A stretch of DNA of 61,458 bases, filler included, from Hausera hauseri (Eukaryota), in the NCBI GenBank assembly GCA_046269625.1. It is 10 parts of 10 records of this genome, joined end to end, with 100 filler letters (N's around TTAATTAATTAA, not from the genome) between each part and the next. Parts side by side here need not be neighbours in the genome. Positions count along the whole stretch, not along the records: positions 45,855 to 52,856 come from JBJURY010044444.1; positions 52,957 to 61,458 come from JBJURY010619886.1; 8 more parts are not named here. One strand, written 5' to 3'. The first letter of the stretch is position 1. Each line of letters opens with the position of its first letter. The notes under the pieces are model-generated. The model saw only the letters and a list, made by a program, of their open reading frames with translations. It was not told the origin of the DNA and did no database searches. The translations under genes and the position numbers were made by a program. Of the stretch, positions 14,724 through 61,294 are shown one piece after another.

Positions 14724-14775
14724 TTCTGAAATCATTTCCATTTACAGTAAACCCCAGCAAGGCGGTGAACTGCCA

Positions 14776-14892
14776 TATTTCGTTGGTAAACAGTATGGCT
14801 CTGGATGGCTGCGTACATTGGCACATTTAGCATTTCCGGTGCTGAAGCGTATTGGAGCCGTGGCAGCAAAAACAGCGCAGGATGTACTATAA
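14776..14892 (+). pseudogene. Small Maverick core/membrane-active protein remnant (GSG followed by an amphipathic helix)
   Basis: YFVGKQYGSGWLRTLAHLAFPVLKRIGAVAAK lies between the minor and major capsid genes. Confidence 0.5.
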
Positions 14893-15085
14893 GAAAACAA
14901 ATCGATTTTACCATCATTGAAGGAACACGCCTTGTCAGAAATAAAAAGCGATGCATCTGAAGTCGTTGAATCAGTCAAAACAATTCGCTGGTAGTTGCTT
15001 GGGATATCGTGGTAGATCAGCTAGCTTTTGAACTATAAAGAAACGTTGTCGTTGTACGATTTTCGGTTAACTGACTGGCAGACAA

Positions 15086-15613: not shown

Positions 15614-16209
15614 NNNNNNNNNNNNNNNNNNNNNNNNNNNNNNNNNNNNNNNNNNNNTTAATTAATTAANNNNNNNNNNNNNNNNNNNNNNNNNNNNNNN
15701 NNNNNNNNNNNNNGCGGATAAACTGTACTACCGCACGCAATCAAAATCAGAATATTTGAAGAAGCACAAGGATCTTTCGCTACAAGCTAAATAAATGGCT
15801 ACAGAATTCAATAAATTAACAGGTAAAAGCCTTGCAAATAGGGTTAACAAGCGTTGACAAGATTTAAAGGCATACGCGGAAAATGAAAAGAATTCAGAAG
15901 ATATTCCACCAATAACAGCATCAGTTGATGAAGAAACCAGCAATGTTGTTGGTTCTAAAATTACTGCATTGGAATTAAACACGGCTCAACCAACAGATGA
16001 ACCATTAAGTACGACTGATACAAAAGCAGATGATAACGCGCCCCTTAATGACAATTTACCAAACAAAGCCACTGACGGTTCTGATCTTTCGAATGTTGTA
16101 GATGAATATGCTCAGCGATTGGCTCTTCTGAATAAGAGAAATCATCCATTGAAAAAAGACTACAAAGAAATTACGAAAAGTCTTTATTGGAATAATCTAC
16201 TTACCAAAG

Positions 16210-16620
16210 TTGAAAAACTCAAAGAAGGCGGAGGAAAAACAGAATATTTTGGCAACAAGTAATATTGATGCTAAAAATGCTAGTGATGAAACAAGTTCAC
16301 ATTTTGCCGCCGAAAATGGCCATGTTGAGGTGTATCAGTATTTGTTTGAATGTAATGCAAACATCAATCATACGTCAGAAGGCGGAAGAACTGTACTGAT
16401 GAAGGCTAGGCGAGCAGGCAATTTAGAGGTTGTTAAACTCCTTGTTAAAAGAGGTGCAAATTTCGATCTATTAACTGATCAAAGAGATCACAAAGCTCTT
16501 AGTTTGGCATGTTCTAACGGACATTGTAAGGTCGTCGAATATTTGCTTAAAGTCAGTGCTAGTCCAAGAATTAAATGGGAAGATAACTGTTCCGTTCTTA
16601 CCGAAGCATTACGAAGCGGA
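16210..16620 (+). pseudogene. Ankyrin-repeat fragment resembling mask/ANKHD1/ANKRD17
   Basis: HTSEGGRTVLMKARRAGNLEVVKLL...DHKALSLACSNGHCKVVEYLL...DNCSVLTEALRSG resembles ANKHD1 HESEGGRTPLMKAARAGH...DHTVVSLACAGGHLAVVELLL...DGSTMLIEAAKGG. It is intronless and cut off at ~16620. Confidence 0.75.
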
Positions 16621-16969
16621 CTTTCCGGGAAACTCGACCACCTTGCATTTTGGTGTCCACCTCGCCGGGGCGAAAGTCCCGACCGTCAACCCTGCGCCGG
16701 GCAGTCGCACGGCGCCTTTCGCATCGGCGCCACATCACGCTCCCAGGCGCATCACTCCTTCCCCTTCTATTTTTTTCTTCAATAATACCCACATTTACAC
16801 AACCACTACATTACATCCACACATTCCTACCCTTCGGACGTCCATTTCTTTTTTACTCAATTTTTCCAATTTTTATCTCACCCATAACTGCACTATCATA
16901 CCTCTCACCGGAACCCTGCCATCTTTCTCAAGCCACATTTGCCTCCAAATACATCTCCGTATCGGTGGT

Positions 16970-17950
16970 GGCACGAACTCTTCGCCAACTATTGACACTA
17001 CGGATAAAACCACCACGAAACTAATACCTGTTATATTGCTCCAAAAACCCACTCTTAAATTTGCTAGCAACCTTTCATCCATTGCCTTTTCCGCTCCTTT
17101 CCCTAATTGCACCGGATTCTTCATTGACAACCAAGGCTCTAGCAAAACTTGGTTGCAATTCCACCAGCTTTGGCTGCAGGCAAATAACATTAACGATTCT
17201 TTACCTAGGGCGCATAATGTTCTTTTCCTACTGCCTAATAACATCAAGACCCGCATTTATAACATCATCGAAATCTTTCAACTTCCAGACCCATATTCGC
17301 AACTTTCTAACGCAGTCCTAAAGATCGCGGAACCTTCCATGGACACGATTATACAACGTTTCTTTCATGACAACGTGATAGGCACCGCAAGGGCCGTCAG
17401 AATTCTTACGTACATCCTTAGCACATCTACATACTCTCGACGTCACCAAAGAACACAACCCAGACCTCCTACGCTTTTATTTCCTCAATGCACTACCTAT
17501 CCAAATCCGGGTCCTACTTACCGTGGTGGACGACTACACGCTGCTTGAGAATTTGGCCGAATTAGCCGATAGGACACATGATGTCCTACACGTAAATTCT
17601 TCACCAGTCGTTTCAGCAGCAGTTGCCGCTAACGATAATACATCCATAGAACAACAAGTTAATCAACTACGTGCTGAAAACATTGCACTACATGCAACAA
17701 TCAACAACATTAATAATAAATTGAACGAATTGTCTCTGTCCCACCGAAAGAGTTTTGCCCCTGACCGCGCCCGTTCTGCGTCTAAAAACCGCTCACCATC
17801 GCTACACGGGTTCGTCGTTCTGCTATTACCACAGCAGATTTAACACTAGTGATCAAAAGTGCTGCCTAGGGTGCAAGTTTTGTAATAAGAATTTTTCCTC
17901 GGACACCGTTATTTGCATCTCCCATGCAAGGTTCAAAAATCTAACATGAA
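16970..17950 (+). pseudogene. Gypsy Gag (frameshifted)
   Basis: DPYSQLSNAVLK, LAELADR, coiled coil, CYYHSRF..C..C. Confidence 0.75.
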
Positions 17951-18099
17951 TGACGGATGTATTGCCTTTCCTTATAATAGTCGTCCTAATTTGCCCTTTC
18001 AAAATAACTAAGTTCGCCGCCAGCAGTCACGGTAAACTCAGGCAATGGCACTACTTCACATTCTCCACGCCGATACGTCTCTTTTGCTGTATTTACTTT

Positions 18100-18420
18100 A
18101 AAGGCTGCAATCAATGCTCCTACAACGCAATTTGTTGACTTTTTCATTGATACAGGTGCAGCGATTTCCTTATTATCACAAACCTTTTCCGTGCAAAATT
18201 CTCCATTCAAACTTAAGCCCTTATACACTGCTTCAGGCCAACCGCTGCACATTTCTGGCATGACTAAACTGTCTTTCACTTTACCAAACTTTCTTTCACC
18301 CTTCCACTGGACGTTCACAGTCGCTAACGTCCAGACGGCAATTCTAGGGTCAGACTTTTTTTCACACTATAACTTACTGGTTGATTGCAGTCAACGATGT
18401 TTGAGGAACGGCACCACTGG
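18100..18420 (+). pseudogene. Retrotransposon aspartic protease
   Basis: FFIDTGAAISLL...WTFTVANVQTAILGSDFFSHYNLLVD. Confidence 0.85.
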
Positions 18421-18839
18421 CGACATTTCTGGACATGGAAATAGCATTTCGACTACCGCGCAGTCGACCGGAATGCGGACGTCAATCTTAAAATGGTCAA
18501 CAAATGATTCGATTTTTATAACGATAATTCCATTCGTAAATTTTTAAATAATAATACTGACATTCGATCGAAGTTCAATGTCGATAACTGGGTACTACCA
18601 CCAACGCAAACTCATTAGACGAAAATACCTCATCCAACACCATTTTCAATTCAACCATCTTACACCAAATACCACTTAACCGCACATCACCTAACAACTC
18701 ACAAATTGCATCTGCTACTACTCAAGCCGTTTCATCACTTCTACCGAATCTTTCACAGTTACCTACAACTTTACAACAGTTCGTCAACACATGATGTCCA
18801 CGCGTACTTAAAAAAGACCGTACCTTTTCTCCCGCAAAC

Positions 18840-20470
18840 AGCACTTTACACCATATAGTTACGCAGGTCAACGTCCAATACGCCAGAAAGTACGGCCTCT
18901 GTAACCTCGCTGTAGGCAGGCCGTAGAAGCCGAATTTCTTGAGCTAGAAAGTTCCCGCATAGTACGCCGTTCCAAATCTCCTTGGTCATCACCTTTACAC
19001 GTTGTACAAAAACGGACGGTACTTTTAGACCTTGCGGTGACTACCGACAGCTGAATAACTTGATTATCATGGATGCATACCCTTTACCACTCATCAAGGA
19101 TATTTTGCATCGTCTCAATTCAACCATTATCTATTCAGCCATTGATTTAGTTAAACATACCATTAAATACCGGTAGTACCCGACGACATTGAAAAAACCA
19201 TAGTAACTACTCATTTTGGCCTCTATGAATATCCATTTATGCCATTCGGTTTGCGGAATGCCGCCCAAACTTTTCAGTGGCACATTGATTCAATTCTTTT
19301 CGATTTCCCGTTTGCACACCCTTATATCGATGATATTCTAACCGTTTCATCTTCGGCCAAACAACATGAAGAACACCTTCGCGCAATATTCCAACGTCTT
19401 AACCACCATAATCTCCAAGTCAATTTCGACAAATGCCATTTCTTCAAAAAGCGCTTTAAGTTTTTAGGCCACGTTATTTCACCAGACGGTCATTCTCCCC
19501 AACCAAACCGAGTCGAAGCTCTTAAAAATATCCAGTTGCCACGTACAACCACCGAAATGTGCAGTTTCCTTGGCACACTACACTTTGTACATAAATATGT
19601 ACCATATTGCTCCGAATTGACAGCACCATTCGCACATCTAAGCGGCGGCGAAAAACATCAGCCAATCCAGTGGACACCTGAATTGGTTGACAAATTTGAT
19701 AAGCTATGCGAAGGAATTAAGACAGTCGATATTCTCGTTTTCCCCAAGCCTGATGCAGAACTTATCCTTACTACAGATGCGTCAACCACTGCAGTAGGCG
19801 CTGTGCTCCACCAGATCTACAAGGGAGAAAATCAACCACTAGAATTTTTCTCTCGCAAGCTAACATCCCCTAAAACCAGATTTCCAACGTTCGATCGAGA
19901 ACTATTAGCCATCGTTCTCGCTTTAAAGCATTTCTCCCACCTACTTGTCGCTCGTCGTTTTACCATACAGACTGATCACAAGCCTTTGCTAAACATCATG
20001 ACTATGAAACATCCTTCCTCACGCCAAGAACGACAAATATCATATCTGTCGACATTCAACTTTGACATAAAACATATTAACGGTGTCAATAATTTGGTTG
20101 CCGATTTTTTATCTAGGACGATAGGTTTGATTAATTTTTCACCAATCTTCTCTCAAGTACAACTACAACAAAACCAGCCACCTCCGGACATGCTTAAATC
20201 TTTCCGATCTTACAACATCATTGACGGTGTTGCTTTAGACACTTCCAAACCAGGTCATTCCGTAATAATTCTTGCACCACCTTTACAACGGCAAGCGTTT
20301 AACAGTGTACACTCACTGCATCATCCTGGCGCTAATGCAACTCTTCGCTTACTCCACCGGCAAGTAATATGGCCGACCATGCGTTCTGATGTTCAAGCGT
20401 GGGTTAAGGAGTGTGTGGCTTGCCAGAAATTTAAAATCACCAAACATTTGAAGCCACCACTTTATCATTT
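18840..20470 (+). pseudogene. Gypsy Pol: reverse transcriptase, RNase H and integrase zinc finger
   Basis: ORF 19239-20470 is intact over the RT C-half and RNase H; the 5' RT part is frameshifted. Confidence 0.95.
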
Positions 20471-28134: not shown

Positions 28135-30341
28135 TACATATAGTATTTAAATAGTGGATCCGTCATTCTATTGCCTTCGATTCTTCAGATTTTCATCCAC
28201 AGCACTTTCTGATTGTAGATGAAATGTACATGAATATTTTCATAGTTGGATGTTTGGCACCACAATGATAGTTCCTTTGTAAAAACCGTTTGTTAATATA
28301 AACTACATGTTCATTAAATATTAGGTAAATAGAGCACTCGAAACAGCTCTTTTAGCATGAGCTGAGCACGCAGTTAGATAAATATTTTTTCACAAAAAAT
28401 AATTATATTTATATTGACCGTAAAAAACAACTGTGAACTTTTTATAATTTTTCAAGTGAAACCATCCCTCCAACAAACCTGAAACCAAACACATTACAAT
28501 TCTCACAAATAACCTTTAAGGCTGTCTTCAAGATTGTCTTAAATGATAGTTGGTCACAACACTGTAATTTTTCATGTTCATCTGTTGAAAACAATACCTT
28601 TTGTTGTAACTTCGAATTATCAGAGATTACACTCCATTAAGAAATGACGTTTCCTGAATTATTGCCATTTACGAAAAGCGACTGAATAACATCCTCTACT
28701 ATCGAACAAAATGATTTTGCCATTTAAAATATTTTAAAGAACTCTGATCAAATCTAAAATTTCATAATTCGGTTGTTACGTCTGAAGAATCACATTGAAA
28801 AGCACATTGATTGAAGATACTTTCGACATTTGTCTGAACAGATTTTATTTTACGTAATTCGAATTTTTCACAGATTTTATTATCTGTCCAATAATCGATA
28901 ACTTGCAATGGGATATATGACATCGTGTGTGATATACGATATTCCATAGTTAAAAGATTGAATACTATATTCCATATGCTTGAATGATGATTGATGTATT
29001 AAGTAAAGAAGACTTTGCTCGGCAAAGTCGGAGGATCGAAGTCCTTGAGTTCATCTGCTTGGTTTTCCATCATAATTGAAATAAGTCCAAAGAGTTTTTA
29101 AAGTGTTTATTTATCCATNNNNNNNNNNNNNNNNNNNNNNNNNNNNNNNNNNNNNNNNNNNNTTAATTAATTAANNNNNNNNNNNNNNNNNNNNNNNNNN
29201 NNNNNNNNNNNNNNNNNNCTGTTTATTACTATATAGCGTCTAATAGTAGTATGTTTTAATGCCAACTTGCAATTTCTTTTAATAATTATTTTACAAGTTA
29301 CTGTAAAATATAGTTAAATCATAATTGGTAATTCTTAATTCCGTTATTAATTACTTCCTAAGTTTGGTGAACAATGTGTTATTGATTTATTACAACCGGT
29401 ATATATAATGTAAATGGCACACACACACATTGTATAGTGTAAGAAATTAAATCCTGTTTTGTATGTAACATTTATATACAACAGAACTACTTTGTTTTGC
29501 AATAGCAATGGTAGAATTAAAGGCATTACAAATAATCTTAAGAACATAGCGTTCATTTGACACGTTAAAACAAATTTCCAAACATTTCTCCAATCCATGT
29601 ATATTACATTATATCGTAGTCAACATATAAATGACTGTATTTTAATTCAATGCCACTTTTCTGAAGATGAATGAAATGCCAAAATCATGTTAGATAAAAA
29701 CATTTTTATTTAAAATGATGTATTATTTTATTCCATATTCAATGTTACAGATAGTATATTTTACAATTTTTGCAGTAAATTAATGTCAATATACAATAAA
29801 ATAAATATTTTCGGCGACAGTTTATGAGGCATTAAGGCAGATTTGATTTTTTTTCTCATATTCAAAATAATTTGCATATAATATTTGACAAAGATTTATC
29901 TACCTATTGATATAAAATTGTTTGACATTCTTGACTTTTAAATTTAGAGTGTAAAATTACAATTATACCATCCGGTGAATTATGTTTTTGACGAATTATT
30001 CAATAGTTATTTTCTATATTTTATTAAAAGTTTAAATTAAACTTGTAATAATAAAGACATCACTTGAAATTTATATATAAAATACATTTGATTAATTTTG
30101 TATTTGCGCAATTTTCATTGTCAACAACACTTAATTTAAGCAATATATTTCATGTTTGTACATTATGTTATTGACGAGTGTGAAAACTGACTCCAGAAAC
30201 ATCACTATAACATAATCAAAAGCTTTAAATGCTTCAAAATTGATCATTTAGTGGACAATATAGTTGAAAAAGAGATAAAAAAACTAAAAATTTAAAAAAT
30301 TACATATTTATTAACCAAATAAGAAATTTTATACATTAACA

Positions 30342-31748
30342 TCAAAATAAATTGCGTATGGATTGTACCTTCTGATGGCTCTCATTTAGAATATCAAAAT
30401 CGGAAAGAGCCTCCGAATAAAACGATTGCAATTCATTGAAAGTTTCAATGCATTCATTTCTCAATTCTGAACTAATTTCTTTCAGTGACTTTGAATTATG
30501 TTTTCGAAATTCACTATTTCGAATATCAATAAATAGTGCATTAATTTCCTGTGTAGTTTTCTTCACTAGTTCTTCTATAAAACACGAAACCTCTAGCATA
30601 TTTTCAATTTCCCAATATTGGTCATCATTATTTGAGTACCGAATTTTGGCCGCAGAATAAGAGCAAATTGCATTCTCTATTGCAATTTCAAAATACTGAT
30701 ATTTATGTTCATTAAGTAGGTTGACTGCATCATGAATGTTCAATGTTTTTTTCCAACGACCGTAGCTAAGAGTATCATTTATGGCACTTAAGATGCCCGG
30801 CCTTGACCTCCTAATATAGTCAATCATTTTAATTTGTAAAAGGTTAATATTCTTTTTTAATATCAAAGGATTTGATGATATTGAACAAGTAATGTTACAA
30901 TCATCAACAAAATTATTTTTGCATCGAAAACAAAACGGATAAGAGGACTTATTAGGATTCCGATTCATACACATTACTTTATCGCAATATGCGCAACTGA
31001 AACTCATTAAATTTTCATTTGTTTGCATTTCGGACCAAAGTTCGGAAAACATGTTGCTAATCACAAATATTCCTTTCATGTTTTTCATCAGTTCAGAAGA
31101 AAGAGCGTGAGATACATTACTAAGTTCTTGAGGATATTCTAGAACATGATTTAGCATAACAAAATTGATAGAGAGATCTCTTATCAAAGTTGCTACAATG
31201 AATAAATTTTCAATCTTTATACACCCGTTTATGCTACATTCGGACCTTAATATTGGCCGTTGATCATAAAATTTTTCTCCAACATCCTTCAATATGTCTC
31301 TCATTGCTTTGCATTCATTGTTTAATACGTATTGCTGAAATTCATAGATTTTGTTTCGAAAATTATTCCGACTTTGGTGACTATCTAATACATCAAACAC
31401 AGAAGAAGCATCACAAATATGCATGGTCATTGCTGTTAGATAAGCAAATTTCTCAAACGTCTTAATGACATTTCTTAAAATATTTTGACCTTTACTGTTC
31501 CAGAAGGCTGACACAAGATTCTCGCCTATTTCTCTATAGATCTTGCTACTGATACACTTATTATAATGATTAAATGTTGATATTGATTCAAATACCAATC
31601 TATCATAGGGACATGATACCTTTTCTTCAATCATTTTGTAAAAGCATTTCTCGCAAACTGAGTGTTTGCAAGGATACATAATGACATAATGCTTGGTATC
31701 ATATGTTTCAAAACAAATTCCACATTCATCATACGTAATATTCGACAT
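30342..31748 (-). CDS. Intronless RING-finger (C3HC4-like) protein, 468 aa, with a second Cys cluster and helical C-terminus
   Basis: CGIC...PCKHSVCEKC...CPYDR; uninterrupted ORF in AT-rich DNA; internal CAYC...C...CFRC. Confidence 0.85.
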   Translation of the reverse strand: MSNITYDECGICFETYDTKHYVIMYPCKHSVCEKCFYKMIEEKVSCPYDRLVFESISTFNHYNKCISSKIYREIGENLVSAFWNSKGQNILRNVIKTFEKFAYLTAMTMHICDASSVFDVLDSHQSRNNFRNKIYEFQQYVLNNECKAMRDILKDVGEKFYDQRPILRSECSINGCIKIENLFIVATLIRDLSINFVMLNHVLEYPQELSNVSHALSSELMKNMKGIFVISNMFSELWSEMQTNENLMSFSCAYCDKVMCMNRNPNKSSYPFCFRCKNNFVDDCNITCSISSNPLILKKNINLLQIKMIDYIRRSRPGILSAINDTLSYGRWKKTLNIHDAVNLLNEHKYQYFEIAIENAICSYSAAKIRYSNNDDQYWEIENMLEVSCFIEELVKKTTQEINALFIDIRNSEFRKHNSKSLKEISSELRNECIETFNELQSFYSEALSDFDILNESHQKVQSIRNLF

Positions 31749-34700
31749 GTATAAATCTGATATAGATCATATATATGCGTTGCTTAATGACAATGAATAT
31801 TTCTAATTATAATATTTTTTTATTTAATATTGGTCAACATTAATTACGATTTGTACTTGATTAGCCATCAGTATATAGTTCTTTGTGTTTCGCTAAATAA
31901 TAAAATATGAAAAATATACCATTACGTAACATTGTTTTGAAATAAAAGGAGAATCATTTGCAATTAATTTCCCTTCATTTAGGAATATTATCGGAATTTT
32001 TATCATATAAATTATTTTTGTTCCTATTCAGAAACTTATTTTATTATTGATTAAAAAGATACAGTAGTAAAACCAATATATCACTGATTAGTGATAATTT
32101 ACAATCGAAATATTGGACTTTTATCATGTTGGTACGTTTTGCTTATGTGATTCTCCGTTTTAACATTTTCTAATACAAATTTAACATAGTTAATTGCTTA
32201 ACGATATAATTTTTTCTAAATTTTAATGAAATCATGTGAATAAAATAATTAGAATGTGCATACATACAACTATTGTTTAAATCAATCAATTACTGAAGCA
32301 GAATTCTGCAAAGAAGAAAGTCATACATCACATATCATATCATAAAAACATGTATACAACAATATAAATTTAAACACAATCATTTTTGGAAATATGATTG
32401 ACACAAACAAGATGCAAGACAAAGTCAAGGATGAGGAAATGTTAGAAAATGGTAGAAAATCAAAATGGAATATTATAAATATTTGTAATTACAATTTAAA
32501 CGTTTTAGAAACAATTCATGTTTGATTGGATTGCGCAAAATTACGCTAAGAATGTTTTGGAAACCGGCAAATTTCCTGTCAACAATCAAGAATTTCTCAT
32601 GAAAGGATACATTAAAATAAAAATTTATCCCGATGGTGAAGATGTTGCTCAATATACTTATTTTGACCGTCTTTTTTCAAATTTGTAAAGAACCAAATGA
32701 TTGTCAATTAAATCTGTCACTATAAGAAAACATAGAGATTTCGTTATTAGACAAAATGGAGAAAGCGGTTGTTGGACAAAAACTTTTAACTAACCAACGA
32801 ATGGCTTGTTTTATGAGACCGATTGAAGATTGCAATATAGGAAGTGGTAATTTTAAATTTATATCACTCAAAAACTTCAACAATTATTTATCTGAAAATC
32901 ATAATAAAATGAAAATTCCATTCGAAATGATATATGAAGATAAAAGTGAAGTTGAGTAAGAAAATGCAGACATTATACGGATGCGAAAATGAAAACGTGA
33001 TATTCAACGTTCGATGAAACTGATTATTGGATATAATATTGAAGAGAGAAAATGTCTTTACGATTTATCCGAATATTTAAGCAAATAAATGACACATTCT
33101 TATTCAAATAAGCTATTGTCAGAATTAGATTTCACTTTATTTTTATTTTGTTGCTAAATTATTCAAACGATATCATCTTAATGTATTACATGAAAAATAC
33201 ACTTAGATGTATTGTCAAACAATCCATTGCTTGAAAAGTTAAAATTTCAAAAATTATTACGAATATATTTCCTGCGAGATATTGAGATTTATCATCGACA
33301 AGCCTAATCTCAATGTTTAGCAAGATATAGTAACAGCGTTAAATAAACTTTTCTAAAATATTTAAAAGTTTTTCAATGTGTTTTCAATACTTTTGAAAGT
33401 TGCACACTTGAATTGGAAAATGCTTGGAATTTTCTTTTAGTGTATTTATTAAATAAGTTTGTTACATTGGACAAAGGTTATAGTTTACATTCGTAAATTC
33501 ACTTCAAATACGTAGATTTAACAGTAAATTGATATAGTTTAGTTATGTTTTACATAGTTTGTGAAACAAGTTTATAGTTTATATTAAATTTATAGATGGT
33601 GTATAGAACATAATTTTAGAAAAGTTACATGCATTTACTGTACTATTTATTAATAATAATTTATTGTTAATACCGTGAATTCAATGCTCGGTGAAATAGG
33701 TAAATTGAGTAAAACTAATTCATTACATACGTATTTGCAAAATTCATTACCCAAAACTCATTTCATTGAACATTTTATTCAGTTTATTTCAACATACTTC
33801 ATGAAATAAAATCATGAGATTAGCATTAGATGTTCCTCTGTTTACAGCCTTTGACATACAGAACATTCGACGAAAACTTCAATCTTAATTTCACATTTCT
33901 TGAACATTATTAAATGTTATGTGATAAATATTTACAATGGATAATTTAATAAAAGTAATTCGATTGAAAACAATATCAATTTTTGGCACTATATCACTTT
34001 AAACAATCAAATAACAAATTTTTCTTTTGTGTCTGTTCCTATCTGTTTATTACTATATAGCGTCTAATAGTAGTATGTTTTAATGCCAACTTGCAATTTC
34101 TTTTAATAATTATTTTACACGTTACTGTAAAAAATAGCTAAATCATAATTGTTAATTATTAATTCCGTGATTAATTACTTCCTACGTTTGGTGAACAATG
34201 TGTTATTGATTTATTACAACCGGTATATATATATATATTGAAAATGGCACACACATACACATTGCATAGTGTAAGAAATTAAATCCTGTTTTATATGTAA
34301 AATTTATATGCAACAGTACTACTTTGTTTTGCAATAGCAATTGTAGAATTAAAGGCATTACAAATAATCTTAAGAACATCATTTTGCTTTGACACGTTAA
34401 AACAAATTTCCACACATTTCTCCAATCCCTATATATTACATTATATGGCTATCAACATATAAATGACTGCATTTTAATTCAGTGCCACTTTCCTGAAGAT
34501 GAATGATATGCCAAAATCATTCTAAATAAAAACATTTTTATTTAAAATGGTATATTATTTTATTCCAAATTCAATGTTACAGATAGCACACTTTACAATT
34601 TATGCAATAAATTAATGTCAATATACAATAAAATATTTTCGACTACAGTTTATGAGGCATTAAGGCAGATTTGATATTTTTCTCATATTCCAAATAATTT

Positions 34701-35149
34701 GCGTATAATTTTGACAAAGATTTATCTACCTATTGATATAAAATTGTTTGATATTTTTGACTTTTAAATTTAGACTGTAAAATTACATTTACACCATCCG
34801 TTGAATTATGTTTTAGATGAATTATTCAATAGTTATTTTCTATATTTTATTAAAAGTTTAAATTAAACTTGCAATGATAAAGAGATCAATTGAAATTTAT
34901 ATATAAAATGCATTTGATTAATTTGGTATTTTCTCGATTTTTATTGTCAAAAACAATTTACTTAAACAATATGTTTCATGATTAGTGCATTATGTTATTG
35001 ATCAATATGAAAAACTGACTCCACAAGCATCACGATAACATAAAGAAAAGCTTTAAATGCTTCAAAATTGATCATTTAGTGGACAAAAAGACTATAAAAT
35101 AAAAAACAAATACATTTATTAACATCATAAGAAATTTTATACATTAACG

Positions 35150-35895
35150 TCAAAATAAATTGCGTATGGATTGTATCTTCTGATGGCTCTCATTTAGAAT
35201 ATCAAAATCGGAAAGTGCTTCCGAATAAAACGATTGCAGTTCATTGAAAGTTTCAATGCATTCATTTCTCAATTCTGAACTAATTTCTTTCAATGACTTT
35301 GAATTACGTTTTCGAAATTTACTATTGCGAATATCAATAAATAGTGCATTAACTTCCTGTGTAGTTTTCTTTACTAGTTCTTCTATAAAACACGAAATCT
35401 CGAGCATATTTTCAATTTCCCAATATTGGTCATCATTATCTGAGTATCGAATTTTGGCCACAGAATAAGAGCAAATTGCATTCTCTATTGCAATTTAAAA
35501 ATACTGATATTTATGTTCATTAAGTAGATTGACTGCATCATAAATGTTCAATGTTTTCTTCCAACAACCGTGGCTACAAGTATCATTTACGGCACTTAAG
35601 ATGCCCGGCCTTGACCTCATAATATAGTCAATCATTTTAATTTGTAAAAGGTTAATATTCTTTTGTAATATCAAAGGATTTGATGATATTGAACAAGTAA
35701 TGTTACAATCATCAACAAAATTATTTTTGCATCGAAAACAAAACGGATAAGAGGACTTATTAGGATTCCCATTCATACACATTACTTTATCGCATTATGC
35801 GCAACTGAAACTCATTAAATTTTCATTTGTTTGCATTTCGGACCAAAGTTCGGAAAGCATGTTGCTAAACACAAATATTCCTTTCATGTTTTTCA
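35150..35895 (-). pseudogene. Truncated duplicate of the RING gene (3' half) with premature stops
   Basis: Near-identical to 30342-31087; GAA>TAA at ~35495 and TAT>TAA at ~35795; the 5' part is replaced by a satellite. Confidence 0.9.
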
Positions 35896-41026: not shown

Positions 41027-41400
41027 AGAGATAACTGGGGACACCAGGAATCGCGAGAAATGCAGCACGGCACCTGAAGATGAGTAGCTATGGATGAGCT
41101 ACTCATTGAAAACTTTAAGACCAGACTTAAGAAACATAGCGTACTTAGAAAACTGAACAAAGTTAACTGTGCGTTTAAAGGAAACAAAATGTTGATAAAC
41201 ACGTCAGCAGTTTGTGCAGGTAATTGGGGTTGCGGTGCATTTAGAGGCGATTAAGAACTAAAAACTAGCATTCAGTTAATGGCAGCGAGCGCAGCAGGTA
41301 GAGACATTTACTATCCCACATTTGTGATGATAAATTCAACGACGAGTTACGACAGTTTCACCATGACCTCATTGAAAAAAACGTGAATATAAAAAATGTT
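41027..41400 (+). pseudogene. Poly(ADP-ribose) glycohydrolase (PARG) catalytic-domain C-terminal part, intronless
   Basis: RDNWG...VAMDE...LRKLNKVNCAF...[38 protein letters not shown] matches PARG VAIDA...RELNKAYCGF...[26 protein letters not shown].TF. Confidence 0.88.
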
Positions 41401-45854: not shown

Positions 45855-45949
45855 GCGGTAAGGAAGGACACATAGCTAGATCATGCCCTAATCCTCAAAG
45901 CGTATCATTCTCAGAGACCACTAAGGATAGCACCATAAATGACAAATAG
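45855..45949 (+). CDS. Gag CCHC zinc knuckle (partial)
   Basis: (C)GKEGHIARSCPNP at the contig start, ending at TAG 45947-45949. Confidence 0.8.
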
Positions 45950-45982
45950 GAAGGAATCTATGGAAAACGAGGGGATATAAGC

Positions 45983-48624
45983 ATGATTATCGAAATGCAA
46001 GACCTACGAAGATATATAAGAAATATGGGCCAATCGAATAATCCACAAGTAATCAAGGCCAGGAAGGAGTACGAAGAAAAGTTGCAACTAATGGAATTCT
46101 ACCATGGACTAAGAGAACCAAAAACGGAATACGAGAATGCTATAGCACGTAGGAATACTAGCATGGCCAGAAAGAGAAACATAAATCAAGCAGCGGGAAA
46201 AGGAAAGCCGACTACGTCTTCAAGTGTGGACTTGGACGCAGATACCGAGGTTGAGTCTCAAGATAAGGACAAAACAACAGACGGGGTTGAGAGCGAATTT
46301 ATTGGCCCACTAATACTCAAGATAACGAAAAATAGGGGTACAAGCCCTTCGCATAGGAGAAGGTCGGGAACTCGTTTACAGTCCCCTTTTAAAAAACATT
46401 TAGAAAAGGAGAAAGACTTCCCTATCGTTTTAAAAGATGAAACAGAGTTAAATACTCCTGTTATAACTCAAGGTGTTCGGGAAGAAATAAATATTTCAAA
46501 TATTGATGAAATTAATGTAATATGTCCATTACCACCTAGTGAGGAGGAATCAGAAGAGGGAAAACCTATTGAGTTTGGGAGGATTAGAAAATCTTGGAAA
46601 AATGCAAACGAACTAACCGAAATAAGAGACGCACTGAATGATCCCGGAAGGCTACATGAGAGACTTCATAAACTCCAGCAGATGAGCAAACAGTTGGAGA
46701 TCTCCGGAAAAGAACAACAATTCACAGAAAAGTTATATAAAAAGCTTAAACCCAGCTCTCAGAAAAAGGAAGAAAACACACCTTACGAACTCCGAGAAAC
46801 GCCGCAAGACTTGATAGAAGGTTGGCAGAATAAATTAGAACTGTGGACGAGAAGTGGGATCGATATTACAAAAAATTTGTGGAATAGAAACGAGACGTTT
46901 CTTGATTAGGTTAATCAAGCGCAAGGCCTACTGAATGCACTAAAAGACAACCCAGAACTGAAACGCGTAGGACGTAATTTAGAAGGATTAGTATATGAAA
47001 TCGAAGAAGCGATAAATTCTTATCTTCACATCAAGCCGGTACATGAACTAACTGATGCCAATTTAGAGATTTTGGGCATAGACCCAATCGATATTCCCCA
47101 GTTAATAGCAGTGTGCAAACTGATAACAAATAACCGTCAGAAATATCCAGATTTAAAAATACGTATTGAAAAAGAAAATGAAATACGAACCAAAATCAAC
47201 AACTTTAGGAGCGGTGTAGTTCACCCGGAAAGAGTAGAAGCACAGAGAATAACACGCGCCTGTCTTCTTGAATTAGATGAGTATAAAGAAGAGTTCAACT
47301 ACCTGAAACATATAATAGAATTTGTACGAGGGGCAGATCACGAACTAAAAGAAGCTCTTGGGACACTAGACGAAATAATCTACACTAAACCGGCGATAAC
47401 CAAACAAATAAGGAAGTGGACATTCTTGTTACCTTCCATAGCAGAGATAATAAATAAGAGACCAAGAGAATTCGCTATGACTGAGCCTATAATGAGACAC
47501 CAACTGGAAGAAATGTTACTAGATATCGGTACGATGGAAGATGAAGGGAAATTTCGAATTAAATTCGAATCATTTCGAGAACTCGAATTTATGAGTAGTA
47601 ATCAAAATCAAACAACAGTAACAGAGATATATAGTATGATCGAGGAAAAGGATTTCTACAAAAAGAGAAAAAAGTTAGGTGATCTTCAGCGAAGTTTAGT
47701 GAACATCCGTTGGGAAGGGATCCAGAGACTAATGCAGAAACCGTTGAAGGAAATATTATCATAGGAAATCGAAACATTAGAAGTATGTAACGATCACCGG
47801 ATCGCTTTGGCGCAAACACTACAATATTTAAGAATCCAGCAGAATGGACACCAGGTTTCGATCTACATTGCCACACCAAGCTAACGGAAATTAGGAAGGA
47901 CCTTCAGTTGACGGGCGACGAAGCCAAGTTCATAGGCAGGCTAATAGACGTAATAGATACGGACGCCGAAGTATTAAACCAAATGCATAAATTAATCATA
48001 CTATTAACAGAAATGGCAGAAATTGACGAAATAGTAGCCAAACGACTGATAAATCGAATACGTTTGGTAAAAGAAACTCGGCTGCTCTCCGAGAAAAAAC
48101 AGCGCGAACTAAACGAATTACTGAGAGAAGCAGAAGTTTACAAGAACAAGTATTCCCTCACGGAATCTGAAATGAACGACAAAACGGAATTTATACAGAG
48201 ATGGCAAAGAGACAGGATCTTAGAGATGACCAGCTATCAGGAGAAAGCCTTGATACAACCAGAAGAAATGTGCCCAGTGATAACATTAATACAACAAGCT
48301 TGCGGAAACGGAGACGGATTTAGGGTATCCATAATGAAAACATTGCAACCGCAGATAAGAGAACTACGTGAAAGAGTCCAAGTTGGTCACGCGGCATTAA
48401 TGAACTACGGGTTACCTGACGCAGATAACGATGTCGAGTGGGATGAATACCTCCAAGGTTTAAACGAGCAAAGCCAAAGAACTTCAATACAAATTCATGA
48501 GTCATCTATTGGTACCCAGAAGACGAAATTTGACGTACAAATGCTACTTGATCCTACGTTAGCTAAAAAGGAACTGAGCAGCGTACTAAAAATAAACATA
48601 AGTGAAGATAGATTAAGGACATAG
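45983..48624 (+). pseudogene. Large unknown charged/helical protein region of the retroelement (ORFs 45983-46909, 47072-47764, 47908-48624)
   Basis: Long ORFs; the first two are in frame with the zinc knuckle; no recognisable family. Confidence 0.65.
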
Positions 48625-48732
48625 ATTCCAACCTTGACTAAGCTATCCAGTGAAAACACCGCATACAGCGCGGTCCCCAAGCTCCTAATAAGAGAATACG
48701 CCAAACGATTGAGAAATAAATCGGTAGCGGAA

Positions 48733-48954
48733 ATTAAAGTGAAAGTATCATCCGAATGGATGGACGTCGAGGAATTTGAGTGCACTACCTCTACCACAGT
48801 TGCGGATATAAGACAGCGGATAATGTATAAGGATGGTAGGGAAGGAGTTAATTATCGACTCTATTTCAGGGCCAGGATATTAAACGAGTTAGAATCTTTA
48901 ATAGACGTGGGGATTATACCCCTCGAAGAAAATCGAATAATAGCAATAATTGTT
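48733..48954 (+). CDS. Ubiquitin-like domain within ORF 48634-49401
   Basis: IKVKV...EFECTTSTTVADIRQRIMYKDG....YRLYFRARILNELESLIDVGI aligns with ubiquitin IFVK...[21 protein letters not shown]....[21 protein letters not shown]; no C-terminal GG. Confidence 0.75.
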
Positions 48955-49652
48955 AGTGAGCAAATCAAAGACGAAGCTTTGAGAAGGGCAGATACAGAGA
49001 ATTGCGTTAGAAGAGTCATGGGGATTCAGGATGCCGCAATGTATTTCGAGTACTTACAGACTGATGATGACAAACTGCAATACGATAGGAACTTAGTCCC
49101 CATAAGTGAAACCTTGCTACCAATGAAATCGAAACGACTAGTCGGAACACCAAAGAAAATAAAAAAAAGGGACTATAATGCAGACCTGATTAGGGAATTG
49201 AGACAACTATCCGCACCAACCCCGAGTTCAGATAACGAAGAACTAATTGAGCTAATGAAAGATCTAATAAGGATAATCAATTATACCGGACTCCAAGGCG
49301 ACATATTAGCCGAAAAAGAAAGACTAATATATAATATAGCCCGGACGATGAAGACTTTACGATTTAAATTATCTAAAAGCGCCCTCCCGATGAAACAGTA
49401 ATTGATAGAATTCTGATAGACAATACGATGGAAGAATTATGGAAAGTCTTGATATATTTAGCAATAGGAACTAACCTATTCCGGAACAACGATTTCGACA
49501 AGACAATTGGACTAACTAGAAAAGCTGCTAGAAGGGTACCTAAAGAAATAAAATGGACTAAATTATTCGAAAAAGAGGTCAATGCAAAAGGGACTAATAA
49601 CTTAGAGCACATGATACGAAATATCTCCCCGAACAAAGGGAACGAATCCAAT

Positions 49653-51529
49653 TGGTTAATCAACTTGCTGACGATAATGATGCTAGTAAAACAGGTAGGA
49701 GCAGTCACCATATACGACTGTGACAAATTCAAGGTGGGTCAGAAATATCCCTTGATGGACTTGGAAACATGTGAGGATGAGACCCCATAAGCTCGAGACA
49801 ATAAAAAAAAAATATACACTATATCAACAGTGCGAATTAATCGTAATGGATGATACGGAGATCCAGCAGCATATTTCATTGTGGTAATATGCACGGCCAT
49901 TCTTCAATAATCAAACCAATCACACCATTGATCCCGATGAATGTGGACAGACAACACTGTTTAGGAGCCCGGATAACCGGTAAAATGGTTTGGGACGTTA
50001 TAGAATTAGAAGCCCAAAAAGGAAAGATAATTAGAGCTTACAAAGTGGCAGTAGGAAAATTAAACATGCACACCGGTTACTGCGTCGGAGCGGAATATGA
50101 CACTGGAAAAGGAAAAGAAGGAGGGGTAGTAGTCGTAGATTTTTATGAAACCGAGTTAAGATCCCTAAAGCGATGTTTCATAATGTTACCAAACTATTCA
50201 TTGAAAATCAAAAATGTCACATTCAAGATGGTGCTTGCACGTTCCAAAGTTCAGTCGTTGTATGGAGTCCACCTTCCAAGAGAGATTATAATTTCATCAA
50301 AATCAAAGAGTTAAAGTTCAATGAGACCACCGGAAAACGTTATTCAAAGAAATTACACACAAATACCAGATCAAGGGAAGACGTAATAGAACATCCCACA
50401 CCAACTATATTGATATCGGATGCGCACGGGTTAAAGTTTATTAGAAAAGATATGTTAACATGTTGTGATGTAGTTATGTATGCCACTAACTACAAAGCGT
50501 TTTTCATAGCGGAAACGGAAATCGACATGAAAACGTATGATATGAAAACATAAGATATGCGGATCGAGGATTACCTCAAAAATCGAGACGACTATTTTTA
50601 TTATAATGGACAGACCGGAATAGCGGAGCTATACCACAAGATGATAACAAATAACTGCAGATTAGATACTGAAGTCATGAGGACCAAACTGGATTTAATT
50701 TATGCCAACCCAGAATTGGCATCACCAATTATACCAGTGAAAGAAGGTGTCTTCAGGCGAGTTACCGGTGACGTCCTATTAACTTACGAATATGAAAAAA
50801 GAGATGTGCTGATAAATGTAGAAGAAAAAAGATGAATGCAAGAATTACACTTAATCTTTGAGAATATGCCAAGGCTAGCGATGCCTCTCACCAGGGTATT
50901 ACTGGCAAACTCAACCGAACCAACGATATTAAAGGAATGTAAAACGAGCTTAGGTGAACCCATGGTCCGACGCAGTGGAACCGACTGGATAAGTTTACTT
51001 AATGGAGGCGCAGCTGCAGCCCCTAGTAAGCTAACCGGGACAAATCTAATCAAAGGATTATCGAAGGATAAGTTCGAGGACACGGCCAATAAAGGAATTT
51101 ATAGACAAAAAGACAGAAGCTTTTAGGCAATTCTTATTTCCACAACAGCGAACTTATGAACTGAATAGGACCATGTCAATGGTCATGGACGACACCCGCT
51201 TTCAATCGAAACGGGAGTCGTTGCTCGGTGCTAATCACTATCAAAAAGTAACTTCAGAGATATTGTGTAAGATTTGGGGAAGATTTTTGATTTTCGGACA
51301 AGTCGCATCTGTATTCCTAGCTATTTACTTTTTAGTCCAGTTAATTAAGGCAGTAATCCAAGCCATTATAAACGGATATAAAATATTCACATTAACAGGA
51401 TTCTCCTGCAAAATTTTGACTGCAATTATCACGCCCTTTGGAAAGATACTTAAGACATACGAAGAAAATCAATGGAAAAATGACGTGGAACGCCACGTCG
51501 GGTACTATAATCGCAAACGACGAGGGTGA
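49653..51529 (+). pseudogene. Chuvirus (Jingchuvirales)-like class III fusion glycoprotein with signal peptide and TM anchor, frameshifted
   Basis: Signal WLINLLTIMMLVKQVGA|VTIYDC...LMDLETC; IFHCGNMHGHSS; GYCVGAEY...VVV; C..GAC...W; CDVVMYATNY.AFFI.E; LYHKMITNNC.L; GDV; PLTRVL; GIY.QKD; IWGRFLIFG...LIKAVIQAIINGY. The motifs follow the conserved order of chuvirus-type G proteins. Confidence 0.85.
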
Positions 51530-52124
51530 CCCTCGATTTTGTATAGACATAAAAACAAGAAAACAGTAACACGAAAGAATGGTTCAGATGATGACGAGCC
51601 TAAGGGAGAAGAAGTGAGTTCCAGAAATAATATACGCAAGATTTATTCAGTGATTAACGCGTTATTGCCCATCATACCACCAACCGCACCCGTATGCGAA
51701 GACTGCGACCAAAGATCAGTCATGCCATATAAGCCCGAGATTTACCAAAAGCCCATTGACTATGAAAACCCTACGAAAGAACGAAACATTATGGAGTACT
51801 ACGGAAAATGAATGTCATTAACCAAGGACTTACAAAAGCGACCACGGGATGTTATACTGGAAAAGAATACCTCATCACATAGAATCGAAATCAAGCATTT
51901 GAAAGGACCCGAAATTGTGTTCGATCCCAGATCCACTACCTCAAGAACCTCTCATCGGCGGTCGTGTAAATGAAATAGCTAATAGTAATTTATACCCGAG
52001 CGGAGAATTAAGACAATTAAGGGAAAATATCGTTTCGTCCCCAGAAATAACGATAAATGGACACCGAGTCTCTACTATAAAACCGCTAAAAATAGCATCT
52101 AATTGCTTCGGGACAGTAGTAGAA

Positions 52125-52470
52125 GGAAGGCCTGTTGCAAAAGTGTACATTGAAAACTGGGAAGTATATGCTTTAATCGACACAGAATCAGAAAAATTAT
52201 TTATAAAATACGAATCCATACCAACCACATTGCGAGACCAAGTATGCCCACCATGATCATCGGACCCAGGTAGCGTAGGAGCATTCGGACAAATATCGAA
52301 ACCAAAATTTAAGTGGACTCCCACCATTTATATGATGGGCCAAGCACTGCAACACGAATTTGCGATAATGGACCAGTTAACAGATGATGTAGTACTGGGT
52401 TGTGATATATTAAAACACATACCAGGTCTGGCAATCGATCTGAATAGCGGGAAACTACTAGAGCTCGGAC
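52125..52470 (+). pseudogene. Retropepsin-like aspartic protease (active site degenerate, DTE)
   Basis: GRPVAKVYIENWEVYALIDTES...HEFAIMDQLTDDVVLGCDIL. Confidence 0.8.
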
Positions 52471-53497
52471 CAATTAAGGGAACAAAAGTAATAAAAGAAG
52501 GGAAACCGGGTGAAGTATGGATTCCAGTAGATGAAGACATTCCGCCTAGGACTCAAATGTTGATTTTTGCACAGATTCGTCAAGACGAAGATTTATCAGT
52601 GTATTTTGAACCGCAAGAGAATATTCACCCAAACCTCATGTTTAGTAATTGGAGAATTTATAATATACGCAATGAACGATTTTGTTGAGTTCGTAATTTT
52701 GATACAAGGTAAAAACACACCCGATATATTACTCCTCTTTTGGATATTTTTTCTCCTTTCATAGCCAACAATTTTATTGTAAATTACCCATGAAATAAAA
52801 TGAATATCAATCTCATAACCACCTCTAGCTCCTCTTGACGTAGAATCTTTTCTGAANNNNNNNNNNNNNNNNNNNNNNNNNNNNNNNNNNNNNNNNNNNN
52901 TTAATTAATTAANNNNNNNNNNNNNNNNNNNNNNNNNNNNNNNNNNNNNNNNNNNNATTCTTATTATTGCGTAAGAAAGGTACTTGAAGGCACACCTTTT
53001 ATAGTTATAATTGTATTTTACTAAATCTAAATCGATTTTGTCAAATATCGTCATTATAGTCAAGATTTCTAATTTTATCACTACCTACTGAAACCCTTAC
53101 TTCCTTCTCGAAATCATTAAAACCGACAAACTTGCATTAGTGATTCATCATTTGCAAAATTACTGAATATTGAAGAATTTAATAGAAATCAAATAGGTGT
53201 TTATCGATAATTATCACAATACATCTGGTAATTTCGTAAATGGATTTCAGTATGTGTATCAATTTTAAGGGAAGAGAAGAGCTTTCAAGTACTTTCCAGG
53301 GGGCTTATTACGCTGTTTTAGAGAAAAGATTTTATAAGAACAACCTCTGCAGGAATGGGAGGTAGTTGAAAAGGACTGAAAACGTTTGGCGACAAAAACA
53401 AAGCAAGATAAATATTGTATGGCTGCTAGAAATATAAGAAAGCTACTCTGCCTAAAGAGGTAGTTGGGAAATGTTTTAACTGCTTCATTAAACACAC

Positions 53498-57770: not shown

Positions 57771-59547
57771 TGAAATATTGCCAAAAATGGATTCAACATT
57801 TTGCAGCCTAGTATGTTCAATTTGTTTTCACATTAAATATTTTTATTCATTTTCAGATATATTACGTGGAGTCAATTATAAGCGATATTCCTATTCAATA
57901 CCAAAATGTATGTATTACTTGAATTCTCTGGACCAACCTAGCATAAAATTGATTAAGTGTAAAACGGAAACAATTGAAGATGCTGATATTAACAACTATA
58001 TTAAGTTAGAAGAGTCGATAATTGACAGACTAAAATTTTATATGCCAAATTAAGTATTATCGGATGAAAGGAATGTTGATTGGTCCATATGTCAAGATTT
58101 TAAAAGAGCTTAGTGTTGCCGACTAGGACAAAAGCAAAATAATATAATTCAATGTGCAAAGTCTGTTGAAAGCAAACTCTCAATTTTGAAAGAGTTGAAT
58201 TCAGTTGATACGCATGCCAGCGAATTATTTGGGAAACAAGGGAATATATTGAGGAAATCAATGATTTTCAAATAATATATGAAAACATTTTGCAAACGTA
58301 CGCGTTGAATTTTCGTGAAGACTTTGCGAAATTTAATGCCTCGGTTTGGTTTTTTTTCCGATCACCACGTATATTTGATGGATATAAAAATTCATATACA
58401 GGAGAGACGAGTCTTCACTACCGTAGTAGAATCTTAGGACATGGACAACGGGGTAAATATATTTGTAGTCCCTACGTCTAAATGTGTTTTCGGAAACGAA
58501 AAATGTAAAAACTTTGCATATATAATAAAATATATATGCAACTTATGCTAGTCAAAATATTTAATGATTGACTAGGATGGAATCCGTTACAAACTTGCAA
58601 TTTCAGCATGGAAGCCATTTTAACTTGCAGCCAATTTTGATAAACAATCAACATGGTGAATACTAAGTTACAGCCAGATTTTATAAAATTCTGTTGACCG
58701 CCATTCAAATACTTCCATATTTAGTGTGTTAGTTTATACATCCTGCTCTTCGACAAAAGCTACTGCTGTTTTGGTGTCTATATGAGTGTCATTAAAATTT
58801 AGCAGGATTGTTGGACTCAATTCGTGTTATTGCTAATGGCAATGAAATAAATTACATCACAAAATTCGGGTAGGAGTTGTCACCAAATAATAGAAAGCAG
58901 TAGAAGAAAACTTGTCATTAACTTTTGGAGATGCTTTACCAGAGATTCTTATACATGTCCGATATCGGCCAAAACAATTCCGAATTATCTCAGCTTTCAA
59001 TCAATATTCTACTATAAAGCCATTTATCTCATTATTGACTAATTTGAGGAGTCTTGCGTCAACATCAAGTCTGGAAATAATTACTCTTATTTTCGACGGA
59101 CAAGGCGGAATCTATTACTGGCGGCATGTTTGTGATAACTCATTGTGCTCGACAGTTTCTTTGATATGCTTAATATGTAATATACACGCGCATTTCGCTG
59201 AATACTTAAAAAGTCAATTTTTGTTAATGCTGAACAAATGAATGTGCATAATATAACGCAGCACAGTTTATGCCAAAGTTGTGACAGATGACCGGGTAAT
59301 AATGAAACACTTTAAGTTAATATATTGTTGTTACGTTTAGAATGTTGAAGCTTTTGTAAATTATTATTCACATTAGATATTCAAATAACCCGAAAATTAA
59401 ATCTTATGATCATTGGAATTGAATATTTCGTACTATAGTTTCTTCCTCACATTCTTTCTTACATCAATTTTGTCGTTTGATGAAGTAAAAGATTTGCAAA
59501 CCGCATTCATAATGTAATTTGTCCAAACGTCAAGCAGCATATTTCAG

Positions 59548-59916
59548 AGGAATTGGACAAATGGGAACAACTGACTGTTGCCGACGCTCTTGAGCCGGTG
59601 AATTTCGAAGAAAAAGAATATGTTGTTAGACAGGGTGAAGATTTCTTTATGATTATCGAAGGTGTTGCCAAAGTCTTTCAAAAACCATCGGATTCAGATG
59701 AAGATATTGAAGTTGGAACATTGGGTCCATCGGATTATTTCGGTAATCCATCTCACGTTTGTCTGTTACTATCGGGTTTACTCAGGTGAAATTGCTCTTT
59801 TGCTGAACCGCCCTAGAGCTTCAACAGTTCAGGCTTGTGGACCATTGAAATGCGTCAAACTCGACAGAAAGCGATTTGAGCGTGTATTGGGAAGCTGTGC
59901 GGAAATCCTGAGTTAG
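59548..59916 (+). pseudogene. PRKAR1: cAMP-dependent protein kinase type I regulatory subunit, CNB-B fragment (exons 59548-59742, 59786-59916)
   Basis: [16 protein letters not shown]...GPSDYFG|[14 protein letters not shown]...[16 protein letters not shown]; 43-bp intron. It lacks the PG residues after QGE and stops early (ILS*). Confidence 0.85.
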
Positions 59917-60583
59917 GATTTTCAGAATTATCTGTTGCACTTTCTGAAATCATTTTTATCACATACAAGGCCCTAGATTTTATGCATGATTCATTGGATA
60001 ATTCATCTTCATTCATATCCAATAGTGTCACAGCTTCAGTGTTACCAGAACTGAAACTCGTAAACCCAGATGTTAGAATTTGTGAATGATTTGTTGATGA
60101 ATAATATTCTGTAGCCAGTTTCAATATTTGCAATTTAAATGATCTCGAGATAGAATTTTCTGATAGAATTCTTATGATAGAAAAAGCCTTTAAGTTCACA
60201 TTCAATTCTTTCTCTACCGAATCCCGATTTGATTCGATGAATTGGGGATTTTTAAGAGTGACTAACACTAGATTAAAGTTACTGCTTAGTTCTTTCAAAA
60301 AGCACATAACAACCCACAGATTATCTGACTCAATGGTTTGATCCAATCGATACTTTGATTTTGCCATCCATACGTTACATTTGTGCATCAAATTCATTGC
60401 TTTACTCCATTCGTTACTATTTACATTTCGAATGAAATCCTGAAATTTTGACTGTTCTACTACTCGTTGTTGATTAGATCCATAGGTGACAGGTTCGGAT
60501 TCAGAGAAGCAGAGCTTTTTAATGATTTCCATCAACTCTGTAAAATAATCTACAGCCTTGTATTGATAATACGCTCTATTCAT
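59855..60583 (-). CDS. Unknown intronless 242-aa ORF whose last ~20 codons run antisense into the PKA-R fragment
   Basis: A long ORF in AT-rich DNA with an ATG start; no family recognised. Confidence 0.5.
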
Positions 60584-61294
60584 AATTCCAGTTATCTAAC
60601 GTATTAACTGATTGTTATATTAATGAAATCTGATTTATGTCATGAACTACATTATTTTCTGTTTAGCGATAAACATGAATGTTATTATGTTTAGGAAACA
60701 TTATTTCAATTGAAAATTATATCATATTTGGTTATGTATGATCAAATTTCATTTATGTAATGGTCATTCTATTTAATTAATTGTTTTGTTATATTATCAT
60801 GTTAAAAAAGACAGGAAATCAAATATAAATACGTGATCTTAATGATACAAAAACCAGAAATTCTGATACGTTTTAACGACGATTTATCTTTATTTATCCA
60901 AATCTTGTAAGTTGATGCAATTGTATTTATTCTTAATTGTATTAGAATTATAATTTTATTCTTGAGTACGTATATTTTTGATCAAATAACTAAGTAATTA
61001 AAATGATGTAACATGCCTAGAATGAAGATAAAGCACAAAAACTGATGTAGCCTGCTGAATGGATAAACAGCTGAAGGAAGATGAGAACAGGGATACTAAA
61101 ATGGCCAGCAGAACCCTCTGCTGGTAGAAGACTATAACTGCAAAACAACATGTTTTATGTGCTCTCACTATAACAACACCTTAAGGTCAGAGCTACATCA
61201 AACTCACATTATGAGGAATATTGCTTATCATGCTGTGAGAGCAGTGTAACAAACTTAAGTCAGCTGCTGTTGTGCAAAACGGATTTTTCTTTAC

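Follow-up and report, generated by a model that had tools for sequence, protein, structure and literature searches.

What kind of element carries a chuvirus-like envelope glycoprotein between its gag and protease regions is the question raised by a 7-kb contig of Hausera hauseri (JBJURY010044444.1, assembly GCA_046269625.1). This contig fills positions 45855–52856 of the window, that is, the whole stretch of 61,458 nucleotides analysed, which consists of ten unrelated small contigs joined by N-linker-N spacers. The feature under study is thus one entire contig between two such joints; its neighbours are unrelated and give no flanks, and the contig itself shows no match to the rest of the window. 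The reading favoured here, with a probability of roughly 0.83, is that it represents a dead, truncated copy of a multi-copy, likely Ty3/gypsy, Burro-like family in which active members are likely to have produced a single long Gag-cargo-Env-Pol protein. It appears to be neither a stray viral insert nor a BEL/Pao element, because profiles built from its relatives match the glycoprotein, the protease and the ubiquitin-like module alike.

Anatomy and decay of the retroelement copy

The coding bias of the contig is pronounced. Open reading frames (ORFs) of at least 90 amino acids cover 93% of its plus strand and 25% of its minus strand, while in 100 base shuffles of the same contig they cover 2.8% on average and 13.6% at most. 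The coding path comprises seven frame segments, with 6 frame changes and 11 stops, and carries in plus-strand order a zinc knuckle, an orphan cargo, a helix-plus-ubiquitin-like (helix-plus-Ubl) module, an internal signal peptide, a glycoprotein with a transmembrane segment (TM) and a retropepsin (Table 1). The preliminary description of this DNA had listed the same series on one strand, with about 900 codons of unknown coding after the knuckle, and this anatomy is accurate. As it had also stated, reverse transcriptase (RT) and integrase are not in the fragment: no RT, integrase, capsid domain or long terminal repeat (LTR) was recognised on the contig, which ends before RT.

Table 1. Features of the contig at 45855–52856 of the window (iE, independent E-value).
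Feature	Position	Strand	Basis
Entire contig: internal piece of a decayed GAG-cargo-ENV-POL retroelement, 5' end inside the knuckle	45855..52856	+	Coding bias, stops/frame changes
C-terminal part of Gag CCHC zinc knuckle	45857..45892	+	Pfam zf-CCHC E 0.0024, below cut-off; P0041 knuckle region iE 0.0012
Orphan cargo, ~890 codons: charged linker, then mainly predicted helical segments	45893..48564	+	No Pfam family
Helix plus ubiquitin-like module, common to relatives	48565..48951	+	Three-relative profile (P0041, P0031, P0017), iE 1.2e-8
Segment at the slot where some relatives have a Bcl-2-like domain	48952..49655	+	Position; no match
Putative internal signal peptide / first membrane pass, directly 5' of the YDC motif	49656..49712	+	Hydropathy 1.8
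Predicted gB/chuvirus-type (class III) envelope glycoprotein, full length, four collinear frame pieces; TM ~51278–51340	49704..51511	+	11-relative profile, PF24664, gB matches
Presumed cytosolic tail/linker, env to protease	51512..52127	+	Inferred from position; no relative matched
Retropepsin, catalytic motif degenerate, plus start of protease-RT spacer (dUTPase-like in Burro)	52128..52628	+	Six-relative profile
Unassigned end, A-rich strand skew gone, no recognisable pol, repeated in run X1	52689..52856		Composition, depth

The repeated nature of the family is seen in run X1, whose kind is not established and which may come from the same sample as the window; it shares 38% of sampled words with the contig. 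In total, 10,911 X1 contigs align to the present contig and cover 30 of 30 bins, with 567 at 99% likeness or more, 1,787 at 95–99%, 4,893 at 90–95% and 3,664 below 90% (8,557 below 95%). A multi-copy family follows from these thousands of divergent contigs, which cover the entire stretch. Single divergent records bridge the joints from cargo to signal peptide (49401–49699, 37 differing letters), from TM to tail (51342–51569, 39 differing letters) and from tail to protease (51839–52219, 34 differing letters). Low-depth stretches also occur inside the element, and at its far end the A-rich skew stops after 52689 whereas X1 depth persists.

The present copy is dead. Among the 80 best-supported differences listed between it and the other copies, 72 distinct places lie on the coding path, and 16 of these fall at third positions (2 of 16 for the differences listed in env). 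The differences from other copies show no third-position excess, which is what neutral decay would predict, and there is no sign of selection on this copy. The env part contains 3 stops and 3 frame changes. At 3 of the 11 stops of the coding path, most of the X1 depth reads otherwise.

The glycoprotein, the protease and their relatives

A profile of 11 natural relatives spans glycoprotein positions 5–639 of 649 (49659–51511) through four collinear frame pieces, with a best reversed decoy at iE 2.1. The Pfam family Monjiviricetes_fusion (PF24664) is found in 3 of 14 ORF pieces (E 1e-5, 1.9e-4 and 2.6e-16) and also, at E 7.4e-10, in the central frame when its stops are translated as X. All six glycoprotein motifs named in the preliminary description are present in the translations. 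Signal peptide and TM were called by hydropathy, without a dedicated predictor: the two strongest hydrophobic stretches of the coding path lie just 5' of the YDC motif (49656) and at 51278, and the same threshold finds a TM in 10 of 10 relatives and a signal-like stretch before YDC in 7 of 10. A search of viral_contigs with the C-terminal piece of env yielded no relative.

When a profile of the central env piece plus 30 relatives was compared with the PDB, herpes gB occupied the top 33 of 41 rows (best E 3.4e-4). The model of the central piece (mean predicted local distance difference test score, pLDDT, 80.7) displays one long central helix among beta strands. Its four best matches among 48,161 chains are gB, with Z scores of 5.6, 5.5, 5.4 and 4.4 and root-mean-square deviations (rmsd) of 10.4, 15.4, 3.7 and 12.0 over 222, 237, 117 and 229 residues, respectively; the remaining matches are short coiled coils (Z ≤3.7), and VSV (vesicular stomatitis virus) G is absent among the listed rows. 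The Z values, though modest, agree with the sequence result for the fusogen class. Taken with the Pfam matches, they point to a class III (gB/chuvirus-type) fusogen encoded between gag and protease, in line with the preliminary description.

A profile of six relatives, of which five have Gypsy-type RT, matches the protease and the beginning of the spacer behind it at iE 1.7e-19 (best decoy 0.38). The earlier view of this region as Gypsy-like gains support from this profile and from relatives with Gypsy-type Pol. By itself the retropepsin region matches Pfam RVP weakly (E 0.0013); no relative of the protease was found among phages or, by single sequence, in the PDB, and Pfam gave no dUTPase match in the spacer.

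Relatives were sought with a single-frame query (47791–51123, X at stops) against 1.84 billion representatives, which returned 48 matches, 47 to env and one to the cargo, with env identities of 21–38%. Scanning of 19 matches showed PF24664 in 18, a protease after env in the same chain in 10, and RT with RNase H in 5, four of which also have integrase. Six cluster members were scanned as well, and two of them, P0070 and P0073, run env-protease-RT-RNase H-integrase. P0007 and P0025 are single chains with knuckle, env, protease, RT and integrase, P0017 joins knuckles, Ubl, env and proteases, and the order is kept in P0041, with capsid, knuckle, Ubl, Bcl-2-like domain, signal peptide and env. All seven relatives with RT show Y(I/L)DD, PFGL and TDAS motifs, which we take to be Gypsy-type, together with Gypsy-type Pfam families. 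The families that we presume typical of BEL/Pao (Peptidase_A17, DUF1758 and DUF1759) were detected in none of the 25 related proteins scanned. None of the 30 relatives looked up has an informative protein name.

The env tree contains 26 rows, namely the present copy and 25 of the 47 env matches, the other 22 being left out for short overlap. A branch with 100/100 support parts nine stand-alone glycoproteins from 17 rows that include the present copy and all 11 env-then-protease chains.

Some relatives carry further peculiarities. Several aspartic-protease-like domains per chain, plus ankyrin and C2H2 motifs, are seen in P0070, P0017 and P0015; P0070 has seven such protease-like domains, some of them after the integrase. 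P0007 (HBK71150.1), a gypsy env-pol polyprotein, is filed under a Flavobacteriaceae metagenome bin, likely through eukaryotic contamination of the bin.

Orphan cargo and comparison with known elements

The cargo between knuckle and env is the odd remaining feature of the copy. The distance from knuckle to env is about 1275 codons here and 234–626 amino acids in six relatives, about twice the usual length, and the long extra stretch looks new. A long cargo is not unique to the present copy, however, because P0031 has at least 1366 residues ahead of env. One distant cargo relative, P0024, is 35% identical over 150 amino acids at about 47995–48444; it is the single match that the cargo-side part of the query (47791–49398) gave within the full phmmer search. 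For 46910–47761, the word index showed no relative at near or longer lengths, which is weak evidence, and the Atlas offered no usable match; for 45950–46906, no family was found in a comparison confined to Pfam and the fetched relatives. The predicted model of one cargo part is of low confidence (pLDDT 41.5), too poor for a fold search.

The three-relative profile of the helix-plus-Ubl module matches the present copy at iE 1.2e-8, against 1.9 for the best reversed decoy, and recovers the held-out P0073 at 1.3e-21. Pfam detects the ubiquitin-like domain weakly (E 0.028), and 34 of the 35 PDB matches up to E 10 show a ubiquitin fold, with a weak per-domain score in every case. Besides the present copy, 4 of 70 related proteins carry the module. 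As no C-terminal di-glycine is seen in the present copy, the module is likely an integral domain of the chain. In P0073, residues 1–372 seemingly hold the helix-plus-Ubl module twice in tandem before env, as judged by eye, although the second copy alone scored.

A Bcl-2 reading of the segment that follows had been proposed by eye and is unsupported: Pfam, PDB, a four-sequence profile and hhalign (probability below 1%) gave no match to a Bcl-2-like domain in this region, which is frame-split and for which the profile is shallow. Pfam likewise detected no MATH, BIR, ankyrin or RING domain in the 7-kb contig.

The closest described counterpart is Burro. Burro/GYPSM1 are giant gypsy-like elements of planarians, over 25 kb in size and with MATH, BIR and ankyrin cargo, described in 2019 by Arkhipova and Yushenova (PMC6431247). 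Burro encodes a Gag with knuckles and a cargo that includes a Ubi2/SUMO-like domain and a BCL2-like motif, followed by env, protease, a dUTPase-like region and RT; its env matches mononegavirus fusion proteins and was termed the first in-frame env between gag and pol (PMC6431247). The present copy resembles it in its CCHC-knuckle Gag, its long cargo with a ubiquitin/SUMO-like domain between the Gag knuckle and env, the place of env between gag and pol, the protease and the spacer, and decaying fragments are known there too. The single in-frame polyprotein of Burro is broken in the present copy, while single chains are found in the relatives. Unlike Burro, compared here by description only, the present copy shows no detected MATH, BIR, ankyrin, RING or Bcl-2 and has some 890 orphan codons of cargo.

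Non-canonical endogenous retroviruses of nematodes, with a metavirus bearing env before pol, were reportedly described by Sacco et al. in 2022 (J Gen Virol). GAG-ENV-POL errantiviruses with a gB-type env have been described from Platyhelminthes, Nematoda and Bryozoa by Chary and Hayashi, with a chuvirus-like glycoprotein also occurring beside gypsy pol, and an ancient origin of gB-type env elements, not recent capture, is argued for (PMC13524379). In the preliminary description, acquisition of an RNA-virus fusogen was put forward for the present lineage; that argument speaks against a recent one. The errantivirus study lists intact elements of three flatworm species, all free-living, in 9 rows, among them the longer Schmidtea elements 5 and 6 of about 17–18 kb with flanks, and its main text uses the word 'ubiquitin' 0 times (PMC13524379). 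The present contig shares with these errantiviruses an HSV (herpes simplex virus)/gB-type env, its position between gag and pol on one strand, the series signal peptide-ectodomain-TM and, on the evidence of one run, multiple copies; Ty3/gypsy membership is inferred here from relatives. By eye and unscored, its env motif order and cysteine spacing are like those of six Schmidtea 'Platyhelminthes_C1a' rows (PMC13524379). The listed errantiviruses are intact, whereas the present copy is dead and has a long cargo.

In its workings the present copy resembles Burro and the GAG-ENV-POL errantiviruses, and it very probably belongs to that broad kind. Since its gene order, fusogen class and ubiquitin-like cargo are already published, the architecture adds little, and the novelty of the gag-env-protease order implied in the preliminary description is not supported, this order being on record for Burro since 2019 (PMC6431247) and for errantiviruses of three phyla (PMC13524379); the orphan cargo alone looks new. 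The literature search found no paper on the present family or its cargo. What the copy contributes is a further host lineage in which a Burro-like family has expanded. It can tentatively be suggested, with the odds somewhat against it, that GAG-ENV-POL elements in general use the place between gag and env for an exchangeable accessory cassette, whose recurring core is the helix-plus-Ubl module and which here holds about 890 codons of new domains; Burro-like enveloped elements would also extend beyond planarians, possibly to a parasitic flatworm.

From the two predicted membrane passes, seen also in relatives, it can be proposed that the Gag-cargo-Env-Pol chain of active members would cross the endoplasmic reticulum (ER) membrane twice. 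The internal signal peptide, which signal peptidase would cut, would direct the glycoprotein into the ER lumen, and the TM would bring protease, RT and integrase back to the cytosol, leaving both Gag-cargo and Pol cytosolic. The element's own protease would free the parts. By analogy, the trimeric gB-type fusogen may let particles pass between cells, probably from soma to germ line. The most likely targets of the ubiquitin-like module and the helical cargo would be the host's ubiquitin/proteasome or its cell-death control, which is also the proposal made for Burro. The processing of such a membrane-spanning chain and the role of the cargo are the questions touched by this family, although a dead fragment is ill suited to answering them.

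Weighing the alternatives

Several points weigh against a Burro-like Ty3/gypsy copy. The superfamily call rests on relatives at 21–38% env identity, because the contig itself lacks RT, integrase, capsid and LTRs; the present copy is a long branch (2.35) in the env tree, and no starred set of half the rows or fewer contains it. The fold match to gB is modest (Z 4.4–5.6, rmsd 3.7–15.4), the Bcl-2-like domain of Burro is not detected, and programmed frameshifting, rather than decay, could account for some of the 6 frame changes. No single record of X1, which is one run, spans env to protease or the entire stretch. Moreover, the end after 52689, which is not pol-like, is also repeated, as would fit a family without RT.

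This last point bears on an unlikely alternative, in which the family is a non-autonomous derivative: with gag, cargo, env and protease retained but RT and integrase lost, it would be mobilised in trans. Over the 170 bases beyond about 52689, where pol-like sequence ends, several divergent X1 contigs still align (15 at one place, 8 at another), and P0006, P0010 and P0017 have one or more proteases but no RT behind them, possibly owing to broken gene calls. However, the flip in composition at about 52689 is as expected from a second, inserted repeat, P0070, a cluster mate of P0010, continues to RT, and low depth is met inside the element too. A further alternative is that chance placed the glycoprotein within an unrelated retroelement, either as an independent insert derived from a chuvirus or as an assembly chimera. 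Glycoprotein endogenous viral elements of the chuvirus type in arthropods are often near LTR fragments (PMC10084718), and no X1 record covers all joints at once. Against such an origin, the glycoprotein is collinear, full length, on the same strand and equipped with a putative signal peptide, the modules on either side match the same kind of polyprotein as env does, divergent copies bridge the joints, and env groups with polyprotein-embedded envs instead of stand-alone ones. This possibility, which the preliminary description had kept in view, is largely refuted and highly improbable.

Still less probable is a BEL/Pao element with a captured chuvirus glycoprotein. Such an element is known in Anakin of mosquitoes, a Pao element whose chuvirus glycoprotein belongs to the same Pfam family; both Anakin and the present copy are LTR retrotransposons with a glycoprotein of this type (Dezordi et al. 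2020, PMC7642597). The protease profile, with Gypsy-type RT in five of its six members, and the lack of BEL/Pao-typical families in the relatives scanned speak against it; the BEL/Pao comparison of the preliminary description was a side track, because the relatives carry Gypsy-type Pol. Domestication of env or cargo by the host as a working gene, which has been proposed for such glycoproteins in mosquitoes, is contradicted for the present copy by the stops and frame changes in env and by the low share of third positions among its differences, and is the most improbable of all. A decayed member of a Burro-like Ty3/gypsy family accounts better for these observations.

Other features of the window

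A separate Ty3/gypsy element at 16475–20470 (+), with protease, RT, RNase H and an integrase zinc finger, is cut by a contig end and has no detectable similarity to the contig at 45855–52856; an ankyrin-repeat fragment lies at its upstream side (16153–16782). An Rfam scan of the window gave no match. Decayed Polinton/Maverick-like pieces occur on two contigs (4618–15613), with DNA polymerase B at Pfam E 1.2e-5 and with ATPase- and capsid-like ORFs recognised by eye only, without a Pfam match. In the contig at 40905–45754, a fragment of the PARG catalytic domain (41132–41341, +; Pfam E 4.3e-21, one stop) precedes some 2 kb of decayed coding sequence that is A-rich and coiled-coil-like and may be the cargo of another retroelement. 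At 29219–35381, the copies of a duplicated segment of about 1.3 kb (spacing 4.8 kb, 77–96% alike) lie around an intronless RING-finger ORF of 474 amino acids (30342–31766, −). Finally, a PKA regulatory subunit fragment with short introns (59484–59916, +) overlaps tail to tail with an ORF resembling the APC1 C-terminus (59855–60595, −).

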